A stretch of 64,000 nt of DNA from Escherichia phage VEcB, in the sequence record NC_052663.1; one strand, 5' to 3'. Position 1 is the stretch's first letter. Every line of letters begins with the position of its first letter. The translations under genes and the position numbers were made by a program. The notes beneath the pieces were generated by a model. That model worked only from the letters and a program-made list of their open reading frames with translations, ran no database searches and was not told the DNA's origin. Below are positions 72-22,298 of the stretch, one piece after another.

Positions 72-85
72 ATGCAAATGATAAT
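72..85. repeat. direct repeat ATGCAAATGATAAT, copy 1 (copy 2 at 267-280)
   Basis: identical 14-mer seen twice in the non-coding leader. Confidence 0.6.
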
Positions 86-266
86 CATTATCAGCTATCT
101 TCCACGGGTAGCACTATTTCACGCCAGATCATTTCATTTGGCAAGGTGTATATAGATGTTTAGACTTGCCAAGCCATTGATTTACTTAGAATTTATCTGT
201 TTTGTTGTGAGTAGTACCTTTCTTGCTCAGAAAATAATCAAAAGTCTTATAAGTCATTGAATGATA

Positions 267-280
267 ATGCAAATGATAAT
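267..280. repeat. direct repeat ATGCAAATGATAAT, copy 2
   Basis: identical 14-mer to 72-85. Confidence 0.6.
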
Positions 281-410
281 TATTCTCATTGATATTTGAG
301 GGGGACGGTCGGCAGAAATCGGGGGGCGCTGAAAATCGCGTTAAGCACCTCTCGCAAGCGAGCAGTATTTTGCGGCAAGTTATTGATATTATTGACTTTA
401 CGCTTATGGA

Positions 411-422
411 AAAGGGGTGTGT
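411..422. repeat. direct repeat AAAGGGGTGTGT, copy 1 (copy 2 at 488-499)
   Basis: identical 12-mer twice, 77 bp apart, in the leader. Confidence 0.6.
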
Positions 423-2892: not shown

Positions 2893-3141
2893 ATGTTAGA
2901 TATTTTTACCTTTGATCGTGTTGGTACACCGATTACCGAAGAAGAACGTACCAAAATTGAACAAGAATTGGATGCTTTACGTGCGTCTCTTACAGACACA
3001 GCCTCACTACAACGTGAAGCTGCACATCTCACAGAGATCACTGGTATTCAGTGGAGCACGGAGTGGGTTGTAATTACAATTGAAGCGGATATTTGGGGAC
3101 ATGAAGAGACGCTACGTACCGGAGTAGTAACGGTTTGGTGA
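2893..3141 (+). CDS. hypothetical protein
   Basis: 82-aa ORF with AGGAGGG SD. Confidence 0.45.
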   Translation: MLDIFTFDRVGTPITEEERTKIEQELDALRASLTDTASLQREAAHLTEITGIQWSTEWVVITIEADIWGHEETLRTGVVTVW

Positions 3142-3187
3142 TAGATGTTATTCTTTTGTGTTTCTTGATATATAAATAGGAGGGTTT

Positions 3188-3412
3188 ATGGTAAAACGTC
3201 TGGAATGGGATGCGTGTACTGCTCACGCTTGCCACTGTGATATTGTTGAAGATCCTAATGGAGAGATGGTGTATTATGAAGATTACGAAGCATTGCACAA
3301 TGCTGTGATTGCTTTACTGGATGATATTAGCTCACGCTATCCAGGACAACAATTCACGTGTCCACATATCCAACTATTAGCCGAACTTACGGAGTATCCA
3401 AGTGTTCCATAA
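3188..3412 (+). CDS. hypothetical protein, paralog family C
   Basis: 74 aa; CDIVEDPNGEMV-EDY motif shared with 8146-8418. Confidence 0.45.
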   Translation: MVKRLEWDACTAHACHCDIVEDPNGEMVYYEDYEALHNAVIALLDDISSRYPGQQFTCPHIQLLAELTEYPSVP

Positions 3413-3590
3413 TATGGGTGTCCCTGAACAACTGCTCTTTATTGTAGGATTAGTAGGCTTATTGGCGGCTGGCGCTAAAGCCGCTTCTCACACGCATCAC
3501 ATAATGTTAAGATTTCTGTTCCTACTCCCTTCTATCCTTGTATTATTAGTCATATTGATTGATAACATTTTTCACAATTAAGGAGAGGTT

Positions 3591-4871: not shown

Positions 4872-5276
4872 ATGTGGTCTGTTAAAATCAAATATAATGC
4901 GCAGTATTATGGTGGAAAGCCTTACGAAGTTGTTATTTGTGATTGTATCTCTAAAGAAGTTGCACAGCTTTGTGGCGCTGGTGTTAGTGAAGCTATGAAC
5001 AAAATGCATAACTCTACTGTGCGTTACTTGGATCAAGATATTCCAGAAGATGTAAATGACTATGCTTACGAAGTTATTTACAGTGAAGGTAAGAAGCTCT
5101 CTATTGAAGATGCACTTAAAGCACTACCTGCTATGTGCAGCCCAACACCAGAAGCAGTTAAAGAGATTTTACCAGAATCCAACCCCGATGAATATGCTGC
5201 TATGGTTGCTTCGGACATGTGGAATCTCTGTCGAGAAACTATGATTAAAAATCTGGTGGAAATGGCGCATGAGTAA
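4872..5276 (+). CDS. hypothetical protein
   Basis: 134-aa ORF with AAGGAG SD. Confidence 0.5.
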   Translation: MWSVKIKYNAQYYGGKPYEVVICDCISKEVAQLCGAGVSEAMNKMHNSTVRYLDQDIPEDVNDYAYEVIYSEGKKLSIEDALKALPAMCSPTPEAVKEILPESNPDEYAAMVASDMWNLCRETMIKNLVEMAHE

Positions 5277-5487
5277 AACGCACTTTATACATCCGTTTGA
5301 TCCAAAGAACAAGGCGGTTATACACCGCCGTTGGACTGAAACGCGCATTACAAAATGTCCTGTGCCAGCAGCACAGGAATATAACAAAACATATAAAGCA
5401 GAATTTGTGGAGTACACCTTTGTAAATAACAAAGGGAAGGAGGTTTATGTTCCAGAATACTGCCTTTGGATAAAATGGGAGGAATAA
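5269..5487 (+). CDS. hypothetical protein
   Basis: 72-aa ORF overlapping neighbours by a few nt. Confidence 0.4.
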   Translation: MSKTHFIHPFDPKNKAVIHRRWTETRITKCPVPAAQEYNKTYKAEFVEYTFVNNKGKEVYVPEYCLWIKWEE

Positions 5488-5654
5488 TGCAAACATTTTT
5501 TATCGACAAGTTCAATAAAAGTATGAACACGTGGATGGCAACATTCACTATGCAATTTGCGTCATTTAAAGAAGCTCAAGAATGGTGCGATCAACACAAG
5601 GATTTTGATTTTTACTATCAAGTTAATGCAAACCTTTCTCCAGAGGAGAAATAA
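5487..5654 (+). CDS. hypothetical protein
   Basis: start moved to ATG after GGAGG (ORF track 5466). Confidence 0.4.
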   Translation: MQTFFIDKFNKSMNTWMATFTMQFASFKEAQEWCDQHKDFDFYYQVNANLSPEEK

Positions 5655-5655
5655 T

Positions 5656-6000
5656 ATGTTGGCTGATATTGAAATCCTTATGTACCGACAAGGTATGATC
5701 AAAATGTGGCTAGATTCTTTTAGCAACATATACTGCACAGTACGATCAGCAGACGAGCGTAAAACGCTTATTTTATCTGCTATTGTTGATAAACAACGTT
5801 TCTTCAAAGAAGTTTTGCAAACAGGCTTCTCCGATGCAGGAGTAGAGATTGCAACGCTTAGTCTTGGAGTGCTGTCTTACTTGGAATCCGTTGTTTTATA
5901 TGTCTTCTCTTTAGAAGAACACTTGCAATTTGAAGCATTAAAACTTATCTTAGAAGCTGCAATTGACATAGAACAAAATCGAATTGATTCTTTTGAATAA
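5656..6000 (+). CDS. hypothetical protein
   Basis: start moved to ATG after GAGGAG (ORF track 5557). Confidence 0.45.
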   Translation: MLADIEILMYRQGMIKMWLDSFSNIYCTVRSADERKTLILSAIVDKQRFFKEVLQTGFSDAGVEIATLSLGVLSYLESVVLYVFSLEEHLQFEALKLILEAAIDIEQNRIDSFE

Positions 6001-6016
6001 AAATAAGGAGGAAACT

Positions 6017-6475
6017 ATGCAAGAGGTTAAACATTATCCACATGGTCGTAGTTTTGTAGCTGTATGGCATGTTCCTGCTCGTAATGAACTATTTTGCGCA
6101 TCTTTTCATTACAAAGATGGACAATATTTCACCTATGACGAGACGATGGATGATTTTATCCCAGAGTGCGATCATGGGTATACACCAATGTTCTTTAAAC
6201 GTATGAAAGCTCGTTTCTTCGTTACAGATGTTGATGGTGAACCTACTTGGCACATCGAAGAAGATTGGCAAGATTCTGTAGATATTAAAGAAGCCCCAGA
6301 ATGGGCTACACTACTGGTACACGTCAAAACCCCTACCCTTGACGTTATGGCGTGGGTTAATCATGATGACACCCATTTCCAATACATAAATAGTAGCACA
6401 GAAATTTCTGGCGAGATTATTGGTCGTTGGAAGCCTACGAATCAGGTTGCTATTGTCGGGTATAAGACTGTATAA
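6017..6475 (+). CDS. hypothetical protein
   Basis: start moved to ATG after AAGGAGG (ORF track 5984). Confidence 0.5.
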   Translation: MQEVKHYPHGRSFVAVWHVPARNELFCASFHYKDGQYFTYDETMDDFIPECDHGYTPMFFKRMKARFFVTDVDGEPTWHIEEDWQDSVDIKEAPEWATLLVHVKTPTLDVMAWVNHDDTHFQYINSSTEISGEIIGRWKPTNQVAIVGYKTV

Positions 6476-6476
6476 T

Positions 6477-6671
6477 ATGAAAAATAGTATAGATTGGGAT
6501 GATTTATCCGATTTTGAAAAATGGTTCTTAGGTAGTGGTTGTTATGCAGACGGGGATCTCGAAAGAGATCCTTCTGGAAACTACACTATGCCATTAACCC
6601 AAGGTTTTTATGAGTGCTGGTGCGCAGCACAAAACAACGTACTGAATAAGGAGACAACACAATGCAATTAA
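6477..6671 (+). CDS. hypothetical protein
   Basis: start moved to in-frame ATG just after upstream stop (ORF track 6420). Confidence 0.35.
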   Translation: MKNSIDWDDLSDFEKWFLGSGCYADGDLERDPSGNYTMPLTQGFYECWCAAQNNVLNKETTQCN

Positions 6672-6901
6672 ACATCGGACAACCAATTTTTGATGCAGAT
6701 ACTGGTCAATATGCAGTGATTGTTGCTCGTATGAGCGGTGATGACCTTATTGTTTCAGAACTACTGGAATCAGATCCGCAACTGCGTGTGGTTTGTGACC
6801 TATATCTTCGAGACGAAAGTGATCGCATTGCACTGAAAGAAGATGGTATGCTCTACTACACCTGGACTAGAGATCCTGGGGTAACGGAGGTAGAGGTATA
6901 A
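6662..6901 (+). CDS. hypothetical protein
   Basis: 79-aa ORF with AAGGAG SD. Confidence 0.45.
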   Translation: MQLNIGQPIFDADTGQYAVIVARMSGDDLIVSELLESDPQLRVVCDLYLRDESDRIALKEDGMLYYTWTRDPGVTEVEV

Positions 6902-7200
6902 TGGTAAGGAATAGGGGTTTACATAAAAGAAGACACCTTACTTACTGGCATCGTAAAGTACATGAACCTGTATCAAAGAAAGAATGGCAATATCTGCCTT
7001 ATGGGAAGGAGCGAAGAAAGTATCTGTTAGCTCATTTAAGGGTACATGGTTCTCTTCCTGTTAACAGTAAGTGGCAATTGCAAACAGCTTATGACGAGGA
7101 TATGAAATATCTGTTAAAGAGGGGCATTATTTGCCTTGTTAAGATAGGACGATGGAAATCTCGTCAATCTTATATCGTACTTAAACAGGAGAAACCATGA
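6901..7200 (+). CDS. hypothetical basic protein
   Basis: 99-aa lysine/arginine-rich ORF, start overlaps upstream stop. Confidence 0.45.
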   Translation: MVRNRGLHKRRHLTYWHRKVHEPVSKKEWQYLPYGKERRKYLLAHLRVHGSLPVNSKWQLQTAYDEDMKYLLKRGIICLVKIGRWKSRQSYIVLKQEKP

Positions 7201-7212
7201 ATATCAAAGATG

Positions 7213-7241
7213 TTGACACGATCTTAACTTCTTGTTAGTAT
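7213..7241 (+). promoter_or_regulatory. sigma70-like promoter TTGACA-N17-TAGTAT
   Basis: consensus -35 and good -10 upstream of gene at 7270. Confidence 0.5.
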
Positions 7242-7269
7242 CAATGTGTACTAACGATAAGGAGGGTTC

Positions 7270-7494
7270 ATGAAGTCTGTAAACAATTTGCAACAATTTT
7301 TGTTATCAACAGCAATCTTTTTGCTTTTGTTAATTGGTATTCTGTATGGTGCAGCTAACTTGTACAATCTACATAATGATGTAGAACAGAACAAAGAGAA
7401 GTGCATCATTCTAAAACACAATAAACAAGCAGAAGATTTCTTAAAGAATAAGTGTTACAACTACATTGATTATGAGGAGACAAACAATGATTAA
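7270..7494 (+). CDS. small membrane protein, paralog family B
   Basis: 74 aa, N-terminal TM helix, KEKCIILKH-AEDFL motif. Confidence 0.5.
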   Translation: MKSVNNLQQFLLSTAIFLLLLIGILYGAANLYNLHNDVEQNKEKCIILKHNKQAEDFLKNKCYNYIDYEETNND

Positions 7495-7729
7495 AGAATT
7501 AGGTATGCGAGTATACAGTGAGTGGACTCCAAGCAATGGCCCAGGAGTTGTTGCAGCTAAATGTATCAATGGTCGTATTGAGTACCTGGAAGGGTATGAA
7601 GATAATGAAGAGTTAGTAGATTATGCTAAATCTTTTATTGAAGATGATACAGACTTTATTGTATTATATGATACAGGAGAGTTAGAGTATGGATATGATG
7701 GAGATGGGGATATCTTTGAACTTCAATAA
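7487..7729 (+). CDS. hypothetical acidic protein
   Basis: start moved to ATG after GAGGAG (ORF track 7466). Confidence 0.4.
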   Translation: MIKELGMRVYSEWTPSNGPGVVAAKCINGRIEYLEGYEDNEELVDYAKSFIEDDTDFIVLYDTGELEYGYDGDGDIFELQ

Positions 7730-7936
7730 GAGTAGTAAGTAAGGTATAAAGAGTATATAATTAGTTATAGAGTTAGTAACATTACATATACTCTTTCCAT
7801 GTATAACATGGAATATTCTCTACCTCGCTATCGCTCGGTATATAAGATTAGGGTAGCATGTTTTTTAAGAAAAGTAAAACTGTTTATACCGATTGATAGC
7901 AGGTTTTTAATAGGTTCTATCTATGAGGAGTAGAAA

Positions 7937-8155
7937 GTGTACAAATTATATAAAGGAAAAGATAAGTTTACGGGTAATCCATCTGGTTTCTATGTAACAC
8001 CACGTGGCGTTGCTGTATTTGATTGGATCTCTGGTACTCCAGATCGTGAAATGATCTCTCTTGTAAAACTGTCAGAACAAGAGTACACTTACGGTGACAT
8101 TACAACATTCTATTCTCGTGCAGAAAATCCAAAACTGATTGCGGAGTGGGAATAA
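7937..8155 (+). CDS. hypothetical protein
   Basis: 72-aa ORF, GTG start after GAGGAG. Confidence 0.4.
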   Translation: MYKLYKGKDKFTGNPSGFYVTPRGVAVFDWISGTPDREMISLVKLSEQEYTYGDITTFYSRAENPKLIAEWE

Positions 8156-8418
8156 TGGTTACACGATATGATTTAGAGGTGTACAGCCAAGGTGCTGCTG
8201 GTCAATGTGATATTGTACCAGATCCAGAAGGAGACTATGTTCTTCTTGCTGATTACAATAAGCTAGAAGAAAGGCTTCTGGCTATGTATGCTAAAGAGAA
8301 CAAAACAATCTGTCCTTATTGCAGTGGAATGGGTTGGGTGGTTGCAGATGTCGGACAAATGTATGAATGTGTACCTTGTAAAACCACAGGCTTTATTGAA
8401 AAGGATACTGACAAATGA
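8146..8418 (+). CDS. hypothetical protein, paralog family C
   Basis: 90 aa; CDIVPDPEGDYV-ADY motif plus C-terminal CxxC-CxxC. Confidence 0.45.
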   Translation: MGIMVTRYDLEVYSQGAAGQCDIVPDPEGDYVLLADYNKLEERLLAMYAKENKTICPYCSGMGWVVADVGQMYECVPCKTTGFIEKDTDK

Positions 8419-8663
8419 CTGTAGCAGATAAAATGAGAGAACTGGCAGAAAACGCAGAACTTAACAAAGCAAAGGAGAGTTTACAAAATATCTACGCGTA
8501 TATTGAAAGAGCAGCTAAAGACGGGGACAGAGAGGTTGCTATATACACGCTTTATCCAACTTTTGTAAAAGTTAGCTTGGATGCTGAAGGTTTTTCAACT
8601 TTTATTGATACAGAAACATCTCATTACGATGAAAACTTTACTCGCATAGTTATTCGATGGTAA
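8415..8663 (+). CDS. hypothetical protein
   Basis: 82-aa ORF, ATGA overlap. Confidence 0.4.
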   Translation: MTVADKMRELAENAELNKAKESLQNIYAYIERAAKDGDREVAIYTLYPTFVKVSLDAEGFSTFIDTETSHYDENFTRIVIRW

Positions 8664-8768
8664 ATTTCTGATATTTATGCGCCCTGGCTACCTGGGCGTA
8701 ATAAATTCAGCTTATATTTGATCCGCGCCTTCGGCGCTTAGGCAAAGCCACGCCACACAGGAGGGTTT

Positions 8769-11414: not shown

Positions 11415-11420
11415 CACATA

Positions 11421-11442
11421 AACCCGCTTCGGCGGGTTTTCT
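11421..11442 (+). terminator. rho-independent terminator (CCCGC-TTCG-GCGGG + T-run)
   Basis: GC hairpin followed by TTTT right after stop of 11091-11414. Confidence 0.6.
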
Positions 11443-11787: not shown

Positions 11788-11820
11788 TAAAGCCCCTAGA
11801 AGCGATTCTAGGGGCTTTTG
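11788..11820. terminator. bidirectional terminator hairpin
   Basis: AGCCCCTAG...CTAGGGGCT stem flanked by A-run and T-run at convergence of plus and minus blocks. Confidence 0.55.
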
Positions 11821-12157: not shown

Positions 12158-12180
12158 AGAAAAGGGGCTTTCGCCCCTTG
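12158..12180 (-). terminator. terminator hairpin GGGGC-GAAA-GCCCC (minus-strand sense) + U-run
   Basis: hairpin immediately downstream of Sir2 gene stop; same motif recurs at 22315 and 35757. Confidence 0.5.
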
Positions 12181-15787: not shown

Positions 15788-15810
15788 AAAAACCCGCCGA
15801 AGCGGGTTTA
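15788..15810 (-). terminator. rho-independent terminator (ACCCGC-CGAA-GCGGGT)
   Basis: on minus strand hairpin is followed by TTTTTT; downstream of 15813-16070. Confidence 0.55.
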
Positions 15811-15812
15811 TA

Positions 15813-19144: not shown

Positions 19145-19348
19145 TTAACTAGCAACCGTAACTTCCGAACTTTCTTCTTTCGTGCTGTCTACGATATGCC
19201 TGGTGGCAATATACGAGACTTGCCAGTTACCATCTGGTGTAGTCTCAATAAGTACCCTATCTACTTCGAGAAAATGCAAAAATTCAACCATCGCTCGCTT
19301 CGATAGGAATTGTTTTTTAACAGTCTCCTCAAAAGATTGAACTGCCAT
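19145..19348 (-). CDS. hypothetical protein
   Basis: 67-aa ORF. Confidence 0.35.
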   Translation of the reverse strand: MAVQSFEETVKKQFLSKRAMVEFLHFLEVDRVLIETTPDGNWQVSYIATRHIVDSTKEESSEVTVAS

Positions 19349-19357
19349 GTTTCCTCC

Positions 19358-20020
19358 TTATTTAATATTCAATTTTGCACAAAGACGTTGTACCGCTTTG
19401 GCATCGAACAAACTCCCACGAATAGTTCTCTTTCCTGATTCATTCAGATGCTTTGCAATCGTCATATATGGCGTTTTACAAGCTCTGTATGCAACTAAAG
19501 AATCTTTTAAAGAAAGCGCAAACTCTCTTGAGCGTTTTGCTTCTTCCGTTTTCGTATAATCTGTTCTTTTGTATTTAGGGTTTGCTGCACCAAGAAGCGT
19601 TCCCTTCGCTTTTGCTACCTTAAGGCTCTTCTTAACACGATCAGATATTGCACGAGCCTCTTCTTCTGCCAGAACTGCTAAAATATTTATTATCATATTT
19701 TCAGCGGAGGGCATAGTTGCTATCCGTACATTAATCATCTCTAACAAGGTTGCAACAGAAGCTGTGTTACGTCCCAGACGGTCAACCTTAGCAACAACAA
19801 GTGTAGCACCTGTTTCTTTGCAAAGATTAACAGCTTTTACAAGCTCTCTACGTTGCTTCCAATCGCCTTTACCAGAATAAAACTCTGCAAAGCTACCTAC
19901 AATAGTATAATTTTCTTGTGAATCCAGGAAGCGTTGGATATCTGCTTCCTGTGATTCTATACCATACTGGTTGCCTTGTTGTTTCTTCTTAGAAAGTCGA
20001 TGATACAGTACAAACTTCAT
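19358..20020 (-). CDS. serine recombinase (resolvase/invertase family)
   Basis: N-terminal YHRLS catalytic Ser context, GATLVVAKVDRLGRN motif, C-terminal HTH. Confidence 0.75.
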   Translation of the reverse strand: MKFVLYHRLSKKKQQGNQYGIESQEADIQRFLDSQENYTIVGSFAEFYSGKGDWKQRRELVKAVNLCKETGATLVVAKVDRLGRNTASVATLLEMINVRIATMPSAENMIINILAVLAEEEARAISDRVKKSLKVAKAKGTLLGAANPKYKRTDYTKTEEAKRSREFALSLKDSLVAYRACKTPYMTIAKHLNESGKRTIRGSLFDAKAVQRLCAKLNIK

Positions 20021-20077
20021 AATACCCTCCTGTTCTGTTGCAGGAAGTATGCACTACCTTAATGTTAAAGTCAACAG

Positions 20078-20281
20078 TTAAGTAGTGGTAATATCATCTT
20101 CTTGAATATCAGGGTCAACTTCTGCAAAGATAGCCTCTACAGGAATTTCTTCACCTGCTATTCTAGAAAGAAGCACTGAACCAATAGCTTTTGCGTGTTC
20201 TTCGGATTCCGCATAAACATTAGTTCCTGTGTCTTTTTTCTTAGTTTCGTTAAAATATACCAGATAGTAATTGTATGCCAT
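20078..20281 (-). CDS. hypothetical acidic protein
   Basis: 67-aa ORF. Confidence 0.35.
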   Translation of the reverse strand: MAYNYYLVYFNETKKKDTGTNVYAESEEHAKAIGSVLLSRIAGEEIPVEAIFAEVDPDIQEDDITTT

Positions 20282-20532
20282 TATTCATCCCAATCGTTGT
20301 TGCGAGCACTTTCAAGAACCTTGACAACTTCTGCGTACTCTACAGCTAAACCAGCACACACTTCAGCTTGTTTTGCAATTGCTTGCTTAAAGAACATAGC
20401 GATTGCAACACTCTGTGTCGTGTGAATGTTATCTGCTTTAGTTGATACGTGAAGATCAAAATCTTCTTCATCAAAGGTGAGTTCCATAGTAACAATAAAT
20501 TTCTCGGTCATAAAAATGCTCCTCTTAAACAA
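20281..20532 (-). CDS. hypothetical protein
   Basis: 83-aa ORF. Confidence 0.4.
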   Translation of the reverse strand: MFKRSIFMTEKFIVTMELTFDEEDFDLHVSTKADNIHTTQSVAIAMFFKQAIAKQAEVCAGLAVEYAEVVKVLESARNNDWDE

Positions 20533-21034
20533 AATAGAAAGGTTGAGTTAAACCCAGCCTGTTTTTTGGGTCGTAGACGTACCAAGCATATGCTGTCTTA
20601 TCAGTACCACCTGCAACAAAAGATGGTCGTTCAGAAAGAACAATCAAATTTGTTGGTGGGTTCTGTTTATGGAATTCCCTTCGTTTAATAGACTCTAGGA
20701 ACCCAAGACGCAACAAGTATATGCAAACGTCTGCTTCTTTTAAGCTCTTTTGCAAGAACTCAAGTGCAAGTCTGAATGGTGGATTTGTGATTATAATATC
20801 CGGCTTAGTATGCCATTCGTGGTTAAAATAATCCTTCCCTTCTTCTAACTCACAATATTCTGATCCTTCTGGAAAATGTTGATAAATTGCAGCAGCAGCG
20901 CCTTTACACGGTTCTGCAAAAATAAAACCTTCTTCTTTAAGGTTATTAAAATCTATTACACTAAATAATGCATTTATACATTTTTGTGGAGTAGGATAGT
21001 AATCAGTTGGTGGACGATCATACTTATTTGCCAC
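20525..21034 (-). CDS. putative DNA N6-adenine methyltransferase (small phage Dam-like family)
   Basis: DYYPTP N-terminal motif and IITNPPF catalytic motif IV in a 169-aa protein. Confidence 0.5.
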   Translation of the reverse strand: MANKYDRPPTDYYPTPQKCINALFSVIDFNNLKEEGFIFAEPCKGAAAAIYQHFPEGSEYCELEEGKDYFNHEWHTKPDIIITNPPFRLALEFLQKSLKEADVCIYLLRLGFLESIKRREFHKQNPPTNLIVLSERPSFVAGGTDKTAYAWYVYDPKNRLGLTQPFYFV

Positions 21035-21494: not shown

Positions 21495-22298
21495 TTAATT
21501 ATCAGAGGACACTTTATCAAGTTTTTCAGAGACTGTCAATACTTTTTCTTGTGATTCTTTCATTTCTGCTAAAATACTTTCAGCTTCATCGCTATCAGGA
21601 TCACCAGTCAACAGCATACTAATTAGTTGCTCCTTGCTGAAGTTCAGAATATCTTCCGCTGTTAACTCCAGTTGTTCTTCGATCTCTTCGATAAAAGTTT
21701 CACCGCCGGAAAAAGCATCTCGCAGTTTTGCAACTTCCATCGCTTCTTCTGGAGTTGCCCCTGCATCTAAAGCTGCTAAAGCAAAATCTGCCCCACTACC
21801 AACAGCATAATAATCTTCAGTTAAAGGATATGCTCGCGTTGGATTATTACCCTCGTGCATATAAATTTTACCGTCTGGATGAACAACCAATGCCACAAAC
21901 TCTTCATCTTCTTTATCGGGATCTGACTGGATCACCAAACCTGGGATTGTCTCTTGTGCTGCTAGTTTATCAGTCTTATCTCCAGATAAGAAACCAATTT
22001 GATCATCACCTACTTCTGTCGGGTTTTTAAGGAAAATCAACTTTCTGAAATCACCAGCTTTAAGCATTTGCAATGCTTTCCATAGTGCTGTTGTCGTTTT
22101 TCCTGTTCCTGCTGGGGCATTAACAATGGTTAAATCATTCCAAACCATGCTTCTTACAATAGCTTCTTGATTCCCAACAGGGGTAAATTCATCAAGACGG
22201 TAATCATCATTTCCTACTGCTTTAGCCGCATAACGACTGGCACGTTTGTCATCATTGGCTGCTGATTGACGACGAGCCTTTGCGGTTTTATTTCCCAT
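21495..22298 (-). CDS. phoH: PhoH-like ATPase
   Basis: Walker A AGTGKTT in PhoH-like context. Confidence 0.6.
   Translation of the reverse strand: MGNKTAKARRQSAANDDKRASRYAAKAVGNDDYRLDEFTPVGNQEAIVRSMVWNDLTIVNAPAGTGKTTTALWKALQMLKAGDFRKLIFLKNPTEVGDDQIGFLSGDKTDKLAAQETIPGLVIQSDPDKEDEEFVALVVHPDGKIYMHEGNNPTRAYPLTEDYYAVGSGADFALAALDAGATPEEAMEVAKLRDAFSGGETFIEEIEEQLELTAEDILNFSKEQLISMLLTGDPDSDEAESILAEMKESQEKVLTVSEKLDKVSSDN

Follow-up and report, generated by a model that had tools for sequence, protein, structure and literature searches.

A conserved small serine recombinase, orthologous to Phi92_gp053, in virulent phi92-like phages and its possible resolvase-type role

The open reading frame (ORF) at 19358..20020 on the minus strand of the Escherichia phage VEcB DNA analysed here (64,000 nt, hereafter the window) encodes a small serine recombinase. 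The protein is an already known and annotated entity, the orthologue of Phi92_gp053. Its gene appears to be a vertically inherited core gene of the Stephanstirmvirinae, which are virulent myoviruses of the phi92-like and phAPEC8-like types. Strong purifying selection acts on the gene, which is not a decaying passenger, and the active site of its product looks intact, as expected of a catalytically competent enzyme. Our best guess, held with low confidence, is that the product is a resolvase-type enzyme that may act early on one site of the phage DNA, either in the resolution of unit genomes or in cyclisation.

The ORF listing gave an ATG-start ORF of 220 aa plus a stop codon, with the same coordinates as in the first-pass annotation, which had called a small serine recombinase from the letters of the DNA. 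That call was confirmed by several lines of evidence. Pfam PF00239 (Resolvase) matched aa 4–141 with an E-value of 8.4e-22 and 78.3 bits (cut-off 23.3), and the protein also matched PHROG 125 'DNA invertase' and PHROG 95 'integrase'. A Foldseek search with the AlphaFold model matched Bxb1, gamma-delta resolvase, Sin, TP901-1, and PhiC31; the probability was 1.00 for Bxb1, gamma-delta, and Sin, and the best match was Bxb1.

The catalytic domain was N-terminal according to both Pfam and the model. Together with the long helix E (residues 108–138 in the model), it occupied aa 1–141 (19598..20020, minus strand). A linker connected helix E to a C-terminal four-helix domain of the DNA-binding type (aa 142–220; 19361..19597, minus strand), which was related to the start of PF07508 'Recombinase'. 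The model was built on 34 homologues and had a mean pLDDT of 88.2. The helices of the C-terminal domain (160–170, 172–180, 185–194, and 207–216) had pLDDT values of 82–94. The window protein itself had no PF07508 match in Pfam, and weak matches to this family (best 3.3e-7) were observed in 25 of the 34 family members in a scan at E up to 1. HTH_7 was not detected in the window protein at E up to 0.01, and when the 34 family members were scanned at E up to 1, the listing of the 25 most frequent families did not include it. Positions 88–307 of the 651 positions in the PHROG 95 integrase profile covered aa 1–213, and positions 10–225 of the 542 in NCBIfam CcrB aligned with the whole recombinase. 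Given this alignment to the first ~220 positions in integrase-type profiles and the PF07508 matches in the family, the small serine recombinase of the window can be described as having the build of the first third of a large one.

The N-terminal motif read YHRLSKKKQQGNQYGIESQ, with R8 and S10 in place, and the catalytic domain contained the integrase-like motif YxRLSkkkQxxxxYGIxSQ. The motif had the longer Ser-to-Gln spacing, which is associated with large serine recombinases. The catalytic-domain residues were R8, S10 (the nucleophile), D80, R81, R84, E121, and R128. In the alignment of the 34 homologues, whose identities ranged from 31 to 88%, the last five were invariant, and R8 and S10 were at least 90% conserved, with at least one of the exceptions being an N-terminally truncated sequence. 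The stretch D80-R81-L82-G83-R84 aligned with the DRLGR motif conserved in gamma-delta and Tn3 resolvase, which we take to be D67–R71 of gamma-delta resolvase in the standard numbering. The active-site set of gamma-delta (R8, S10, D67, R68, and R71) thus had its counterparts in R8, S10, D80, R81, and R84.

The relationship to integrases (PHROG 95, CcrB, and the Bxb1 fold), and the fact that such genes are common markers of temperate phages, could indicate an integrase that serves a cryptic lysogenic or episomal state. However, the recombinase is only 220 aa long, and zinc-ribbon and coiled-coil domains were not detected by Pfam or in the model. No close copy was found among 185,579 species, each represented by one genome; a profile search there returned only relatives of 30–41% identity in unrelated taxa (Rhodobacterales, Cytophagales, and Acetobacteraceae), and the 5,426 complete E. 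coli genomes gave no match. Moreover, the phage group is described as lytic. The integrase explanation is not supported, and we consider it scarcely credible.

The window region was 98–99% identical to more than 50 genomes of Justusliebigvirus (phi92-like; Stephanstirmvirinae). This group has been described as lytic, which agreed with the first-pass description of an apparently virulent phage in which no lysogeny module was recognised. Phi92_gp053 (YP_009012384.1) was 99.5% identical to the window protein and had the same neighbours, the same strand, and almost the same coordinate. The window protein was 100% identical in phages outra, AV123, ESCO32, KMB37, and PaulScherrer and 99–99.5% identical in ~49 more, and 54 records contained the recombinase at a protein identity of at least 99%. 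In phi92, gp053 was annotated as 'putative recombinase, resolvase family protein / DNA invertase', and the deposited labels of the orthologues varied among 'DNA invertase', 'resolvase', 'integrase', and 'hypothetical'. All of these are homology labels. A literature search found no functional study or discussion of the Phi92_gp053 protein.

The position amid hypothetical genes and a DNA methyltransferase, far from the tail fibres, was also as first read. Downstream, the start codon of the gp052 homologue (67 aa; 19145..19348, minus strand) was located 9 nt past the recombinase stop; this homologue was 51% identical to the corresponding neighbour in L002 and 36% identical to t226 of Phapecoctavirus tuntematon. 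Upstream, the recombinase was preceded by the gp054 homologue (67 aa; 20078..20281, minus strand; PHROG 15892), which marks the conserved position of the recombinase, and then by the gp055 homologue (20281..20532), another small hypothetical gene. The DNA methyltransferase (169 aa; 20525..21034; PHROG 799) was two genes upstream of the recombinase. Pfam and PHROG also placed a PhoH/HslV region and a NinI-like phosphatase nearby. The accessory early genes around the recombinase included methyltransferases, Sir2, PhoH, HslV, and the phosphatase. A DprA-like gene was found in the window 2 kb downstream of the recombinase, and the tail-fibre genes were ~54 kb away in genome coordinates.

The window lacked 1,130 bp that were present in every listed relative, with the junction at 21955–21963, 1.9 kb from the recombinase. 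Two copies of the 9-bp TGTGCTGCT were joined at this junction. In the resulting fused ORF (21495..22298, minus strand), the N-terminal ~116 aa of PhoH were followed in frame by the last ~145 aa of the HslV-like peptidase, and gp059 was lost. The window thus looks like a microhomology-mediated deletion mutant. Since the deletion affected the PhoH, gp059, and HslV-like genes, these three genes would be dispensable. The deletion was also considered as a product of the recombinase and rejected, because the 9-bp microhomology junction pointed to slippage or illegitimate recombination and not to a site-specific event.

The spacers beside the recombinase gene were short, with 57 bp upstream, filled by the promoter and the ribosome binding site (RBS), and 9 bp downstream. 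A consensus scan of the upstream spacer identified a sigma-70-type promoter-like site (TTGACT, 17 nt, CATACT) at 20046..20074 on the minus strand. The RBS (GGAGG) was found at 20027..20031 on the same strand, and the phi92 annotation has an RBS at the corresponding position. Most relatives inspected, from several clades, had a TTGACA/T box equally far upstream, even with differing neighbours (L002, L003, L005, L007, L008, L011, and L086, in addition to the window). Because this conserved sigma-70-type box precedes the gene, the recombinase is probably expressed early by the host RNA polymerase from its own predicted promoter. No dyad element upstream of the recombinase was conserved across clades. 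A perfect 10-5-10 palindrome over the −10 box in Klebsiella phage phi1_175008 was considered as a site and rejected, as the window and eight other relatives either lacked it or had a degenerate form.

Alternatively, the recombinase could have become a site-specific DNA-binding regulator, for example an autorepressor, for which recombination no longer matters. Resolvases commonly repress their own promoters, the only non-coding DNA beside the gene was the promoter, and the palindrome of the Klebsiella phage copy overlapped the −10 box. However, this palindrome was conserved neither in the window nor in other clades, and the invariance or near-invariance of R8, S10, D80, R81, R84, E121, and R128 over such deep divergence would be unexpected for a pure binder. 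A regulator of this kind is therefore judged very unlikely.

The tblastn search found the recombinase gene in 160 phage records. The numbers of records with the gene (105 for Escherichia, 5 for 'Campylobacter', and those for unannotated Justusliebigvirus and Phapecoctavirus) were the same as the numbers matching the surrounding 6 kb. From these totals, which were equal but were not matched as lists, we infer that every relative in the collection carries the recombinase, including 105 of 105 Escherichia phage records. The protein in Klebsiella phage phi1_175008 (78% identity) and that in Klebsiella phage 05F01 (44%) were encoded at the same site. The order of methyltransferase, gp054, and recombinase was kept in the Klebsiella phage clades and in the 42-kb metagenomic contig L009, where the protein identity was 39%, and gp054 homologues directly preceded the recombinase in L002, L086 (05F01), and L009. 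The homologue was at a different site in Phapecoctavirus (57%) and in a different context in Vibrio myoviruses of 128–148 kb (~34%). The dN/dS of the gene relative to phi92 was 0.035. Relative to the clades with 87 and 78% identity, the non-synonymous difference was 0.10–0.16, with the synonymous sites saturated.

Several of the relatives had features of their own. In Klebsiella phage 05F01, the recombinase (2908–3579) was in the phi92-type position and had a different N-terminus (MNRNIAYKRVSTDQQ..., with the short 'classical' spacing). It may be chimeric, because its similarity to the window protein began only at residue 44. In Schickermooser (NC_048196.1, 2800–3550), the orthologue was broken by several frameshifts; ~20 bases were missing over 1.2 kb, the identity to tuntematon was 96.8%, and only a 128-aa C-terminal piece was annotated. 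This copy is either a pseudogene or the result of homopolymer sequencing errors. It was rejected as proof that the recombinase is dispensable, because so many small indels over 1.2 kb could equally be sequencing errors. In Vibrio phage 1.063.O, a 128-kb myovirus, the homologue (region 5001–8745) was directly upstream of a 712-aa 'ATPase' gene with a histidine-kinase/GyrB-type note, which we take to be rIIA-like, and of rIIB; NAD-salvage genes were located on the other side of the recombinase. Five 'Campylobacter phage' (C. jejuni) records of the MG0656xx series were, over the whole region, 98% identical to the coliphage genus treated here and are probably coliphage contaminants or mislabelled.

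The different site in Phapecoctavirus bears on the possibility that the promoter and the recombinase form a selfish single-gene cassette, which moves between intergenic sites with little benefit to the phage. The first-pass annotation had suggested a small mobile cassette, and in Phapecoctavirus a clean pair of filled and empty sites was indeed found. There, the homologue followed the t185 homologue (a homologue of the window ORF 5275–5478) in the opposite early arm. The locus corresponding to the phi92-type site in Phapecoctavirus tuntematon was an 'empty site' without a recombinase, comprising the gp054 homologue t227 (66%), a terminator hairpin, and the gp052 homologue t226 (36%). The predicted promoter of the gene itself would also suit a cassette. 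Other observations spoke against self-mobility. The two locations were similar over no more than the stretch between the −35 box and the stop codon, and no direct or inverted repeats flanking the recombinase were found at either of them. There was one copy per genome, seemingly throughout the subfamily, the phi92-type site was kept down to 39% protein identity, and purifying selection was strong. Self-mobilisation would explain the location pattern less well than the ordinary shuffling of early genes that are transcribed independently, and a selfish cassette is considered improbable.

Another suggestion was an invertible DNA switch, in which a DNA invertase would flip a phage segment or promoter in a Gin/Cin/Hin-like or Mpi-like manner. 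The database annotation 'DNA invertase' pointed in this direction, as did NCBIfam, in which the Mpi master invertase was weakly similar (32.6 bits, with a cut-off of 272), and Mpi-type enzymes are able to act on distant sites. However, HTH_7 was not detected in the recombinase, and paired inverted crossover sites were sought near the gene and genome-wide with no convincing candidate. For the repeat search, the full genome of 145 kb was rebuilt from the window and EmilieFrey 8771–90223. Around the gene, in the window, and in the rebuilt genome, no direct or inverted repeats were found beyond chance-level matches, terminators, and Fur-box-like palindromes, and the inverted repeats of at least 18 nt in the window, like the strongest ones in the rebuilt genome, belonged to these three kinds. 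The number of perfect inverted repeats of at least 12 nt at distances of 60–4000 bp was 59, compared with 53.8 in shuffles, and the longest was 15 nt. The repeat search around 71 distant homologues was noisy, and no common pattern of flanking repeats was found. A palindrome TGATAT...ATATCA in the 3′ end of gp054 was rejected as a site, since it was a repeated Asp-Ile coding sequence and was absent in L002.

Structural comparison of the relatives gave the same result. Four megablast comparisons were made: two with the window (1–25 kb and 25–50 kb), one with the block of tail-fibre and baseplate genes, and one with the early block at the right end. About 50 Justusliebigvirus records were collinear over ~117 of 146 kb, with the tail-fibre block wholly included and no inversion, and the extra match places that were checked were record ends. 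The switch was thus not upheld, and we regard it as highly improbable.

The strongest 'inverted repeats' were accounted for by terminator hairpins. Near-identical bidirectional hairpins, for example AAAACCCGCCGAAGCGGGTTT and AAAGGGGCTTTCGCCCCTTT, recurred through the genome, and those in the window were located at 11418–11440, 15789–15811, 11789–11818, 12161–12179, 22315–34, and 35752–81. Past the left edge of the window, EmilieFrey (MZ501063.1) contained at least nine strong sigma-70-type promoters at ~79.0–88.4 kb (TTGACA, 17 nt, TAAGAT-like). A GC-rich stem-loop was found within ~8 nt after each of these promoters, for example GGCGGGAAATGGTTTCCCGCC, and they formed repeated units before small early genes.

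The genomes of Stephanstirmvirinae have short direct terminal repeats, with a length of 342 bp in BME3. This BME3 repeat mapped to window positions 74–416 (96.8% identity). It opened with a perfect Fur-box 7-1-7 motif, TGATAATCATTATCA (79–93), and a second copy with one mismatch was located at 274–288. In EmilieFrey, four more Fur-box motifs were clustered at ~78.08–78.17 kb and two were found at ~89.36–89.42 kb, and similar motifs were present in the gene-free terminal region (4.6–5.6 kb) of Phapecoctavirus tuntematon. These Fur-box-like motifs may reflect iron/Fur control or a titration of Fur by the phage. Those in the terminal repeat were considered as candidate recombinase sites, but host Fur is the simpler and more probable explanation: they had the exact E. 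coli Fur 7-1-7 consensus; the same sequence was kept in Phapecoctavirus despite a recombinase of 57% identity; and they were centred on a single base pair. At the ends of the BME3 record (PP239276.1), a 788-bp block was duplicated (1–788 = 146169–146956) and 1–342 was repeated at 147030–147371. This odd duplication suggests an assembly artefact around the terminal repeat.

The repeat searches of the window and the rebuilt genome did not find a recombination site for the recombinase. One explanation would be that the enzyme acts early on host DNA, rearranging or breaking a host locus for take-over or counter-defence. The predicted promoter, which suggests early expression, and the placement among accessory early genes would be compatible with this, and host Pin-type serine recombinases are reported to affect phage adsorption. 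However, there was no candidate host site. In addition, homologues occurred in Escherichia, Klebsiella, and Vibrio phages and in recombination modules of marine phages, and a host target shared across such diverse phages is unlikely. We consider an action on host DNA unlikely.

The resolvase-type role on phage DNA was proposed because of three observations taken together: the relatives on plasmids, the recombination modules of marine phages, and the terminal repeats. Full-length relatives (aa 1–220) with ~35% identity were found on small plasmids, such as pP18_i of Phaeobacter piscinae and pIITB3_2 of Synechococcus elongatus. On the 7.3-kb pP18_i, the relative was accompanied by rep, parA, and an RHH gene. 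Such company is the classical setting of multimer-resolution recombinases. In marine phages, the genes adjoining the homologues encoded a YqaJ exonuclease, a DNA ligase, a PD-(D/E)XK nuclease, or a protein similar to DprA, and the window, too, has its DprA-like gene near the recombinase. The comparison with plasmids and marine phages draws on relatives of 30–36% identity, the functions of which are themselves deduced from their neighbours. Short direct terminal repeats, in turn, imply that recombination is needed for the formation of replicative circles or concatemers. The resolution of replication intermediates, which was among the first-pass suggestions, would be the reading most compatible with the context of the distant relatives.

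In the proposed mechanism, each phage genome would have one specific site, to which the recombinase would bind as a dimer. Where this site occurs twice, as in dimers, concatemers, or a terminally repeated chromosome, the two copies would then be synapsed and exchanged by the usual mechanism of serine recombinases, that is, double-strand cleavage with a phosphoserine link, subunit rotation, and religation. The products would be unit-length or circular replication templates. As the 57-bp upstream spacer was filled by the promoter and the RBS, a res of the Tn3 or Sin type (90–120 bp) could not fit there. A counterpoint to the resolvase-type role is that multimers would not obviously need resolution in phages that package from concatemers.

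A more specific version of this proposal is that the virulent lineage uses its core early recombinase in a Cre/lox fashion on a single site of its own, which may lie within or close to the 342-bp terminal repeat, where 15-bp palindromes are clustered, and thereby circularises the infecting DNA or cuts unit-length templates. We regard this version as a long shot. If it is true, such a Cre/lox-like step would be a replication-initiation step new for lytic tailed phages; to our knowledge, it has not been described for them.

These results are relevant to the practical use of the phages. The phi92-like and phAPEC8-like phages have been used and proposed for therapy and biocontrol, and genome screens take 'recombinase' or 'integrase' matches as markers of temperate phages. 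The shortness of this orphan recombinase and the absence of prophage copies in the 185,579 species genomes and the 5,426 E. coli genomes argue against reading it as a lysogeny marker. The varying labels of the gene are a recurrent source of mis-annotation, and one genome report claimed that no recombinase was present although the orthologue was there. A conserved and apparently active recombinase without a visible substrate in a lytic phage is also a small scientific puzzle.

Among the known systems, the Hin/Gin/Cin/Pin invertases share the catalytic fold, and they are likewise small and phage-encoded (Gin in Mu, Cin in P1). However, HTH_7, flanking inverted crossover sites, and an invertible segment were not found here, and there was no linkage to tail fibres. 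The Tn3/gamma-delta/Sin resolvases have the fold and the catalytic residues in common with the window recombinase, and the action proposed here, the resolution between directly repeated copies of one site, is also theirs. They differ in that HTH_7 was not detected in the window protein, the sequence similarity was low (E ~1e-5), and there was no space for a multi-subsite res beside the gene. The serine transposases of the IS607 family have an N-terminal MerR-like HTH and a C-terminal catalytic domain, which is the reverse of the order in the window recombinase.

The large serine recombinases (Bxb1, PhiC31, TP901-1, and CcrB) resemble the window protein in the extended S...Q...(Y/S)(G)(I/L)xxQ spacing and in the start of a 'Recombinase' domain after helix E. 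However, they comprise 450–650 aa in contrast to 220 aa here, and the remaining recombinase domain, the zinc-ribbon domain, and the coiled coil were not detected in the window protein, for which neither an attP/attB pair nor prophage copies were found. P1 Cre, also phage-encoded, acts at a single site, where it resolves dimers and circularises infecting DNA that is terminally redundant. Its likeness to the recombinase is a functional analogy only, limited to the type of role suggested above; Cre belongs to the tyrosine recombinases and comes from a temperate plasmid-prophage, and no lox-like site was found here. The 'recombinase family protein' genes of small plasmids differ in being plasmid-borne beside rep/parA, and their function is likewise deduced from context, whereas their products aligned with the window protein over its full length at ~35% identity and belonged to the same two-domain size class.
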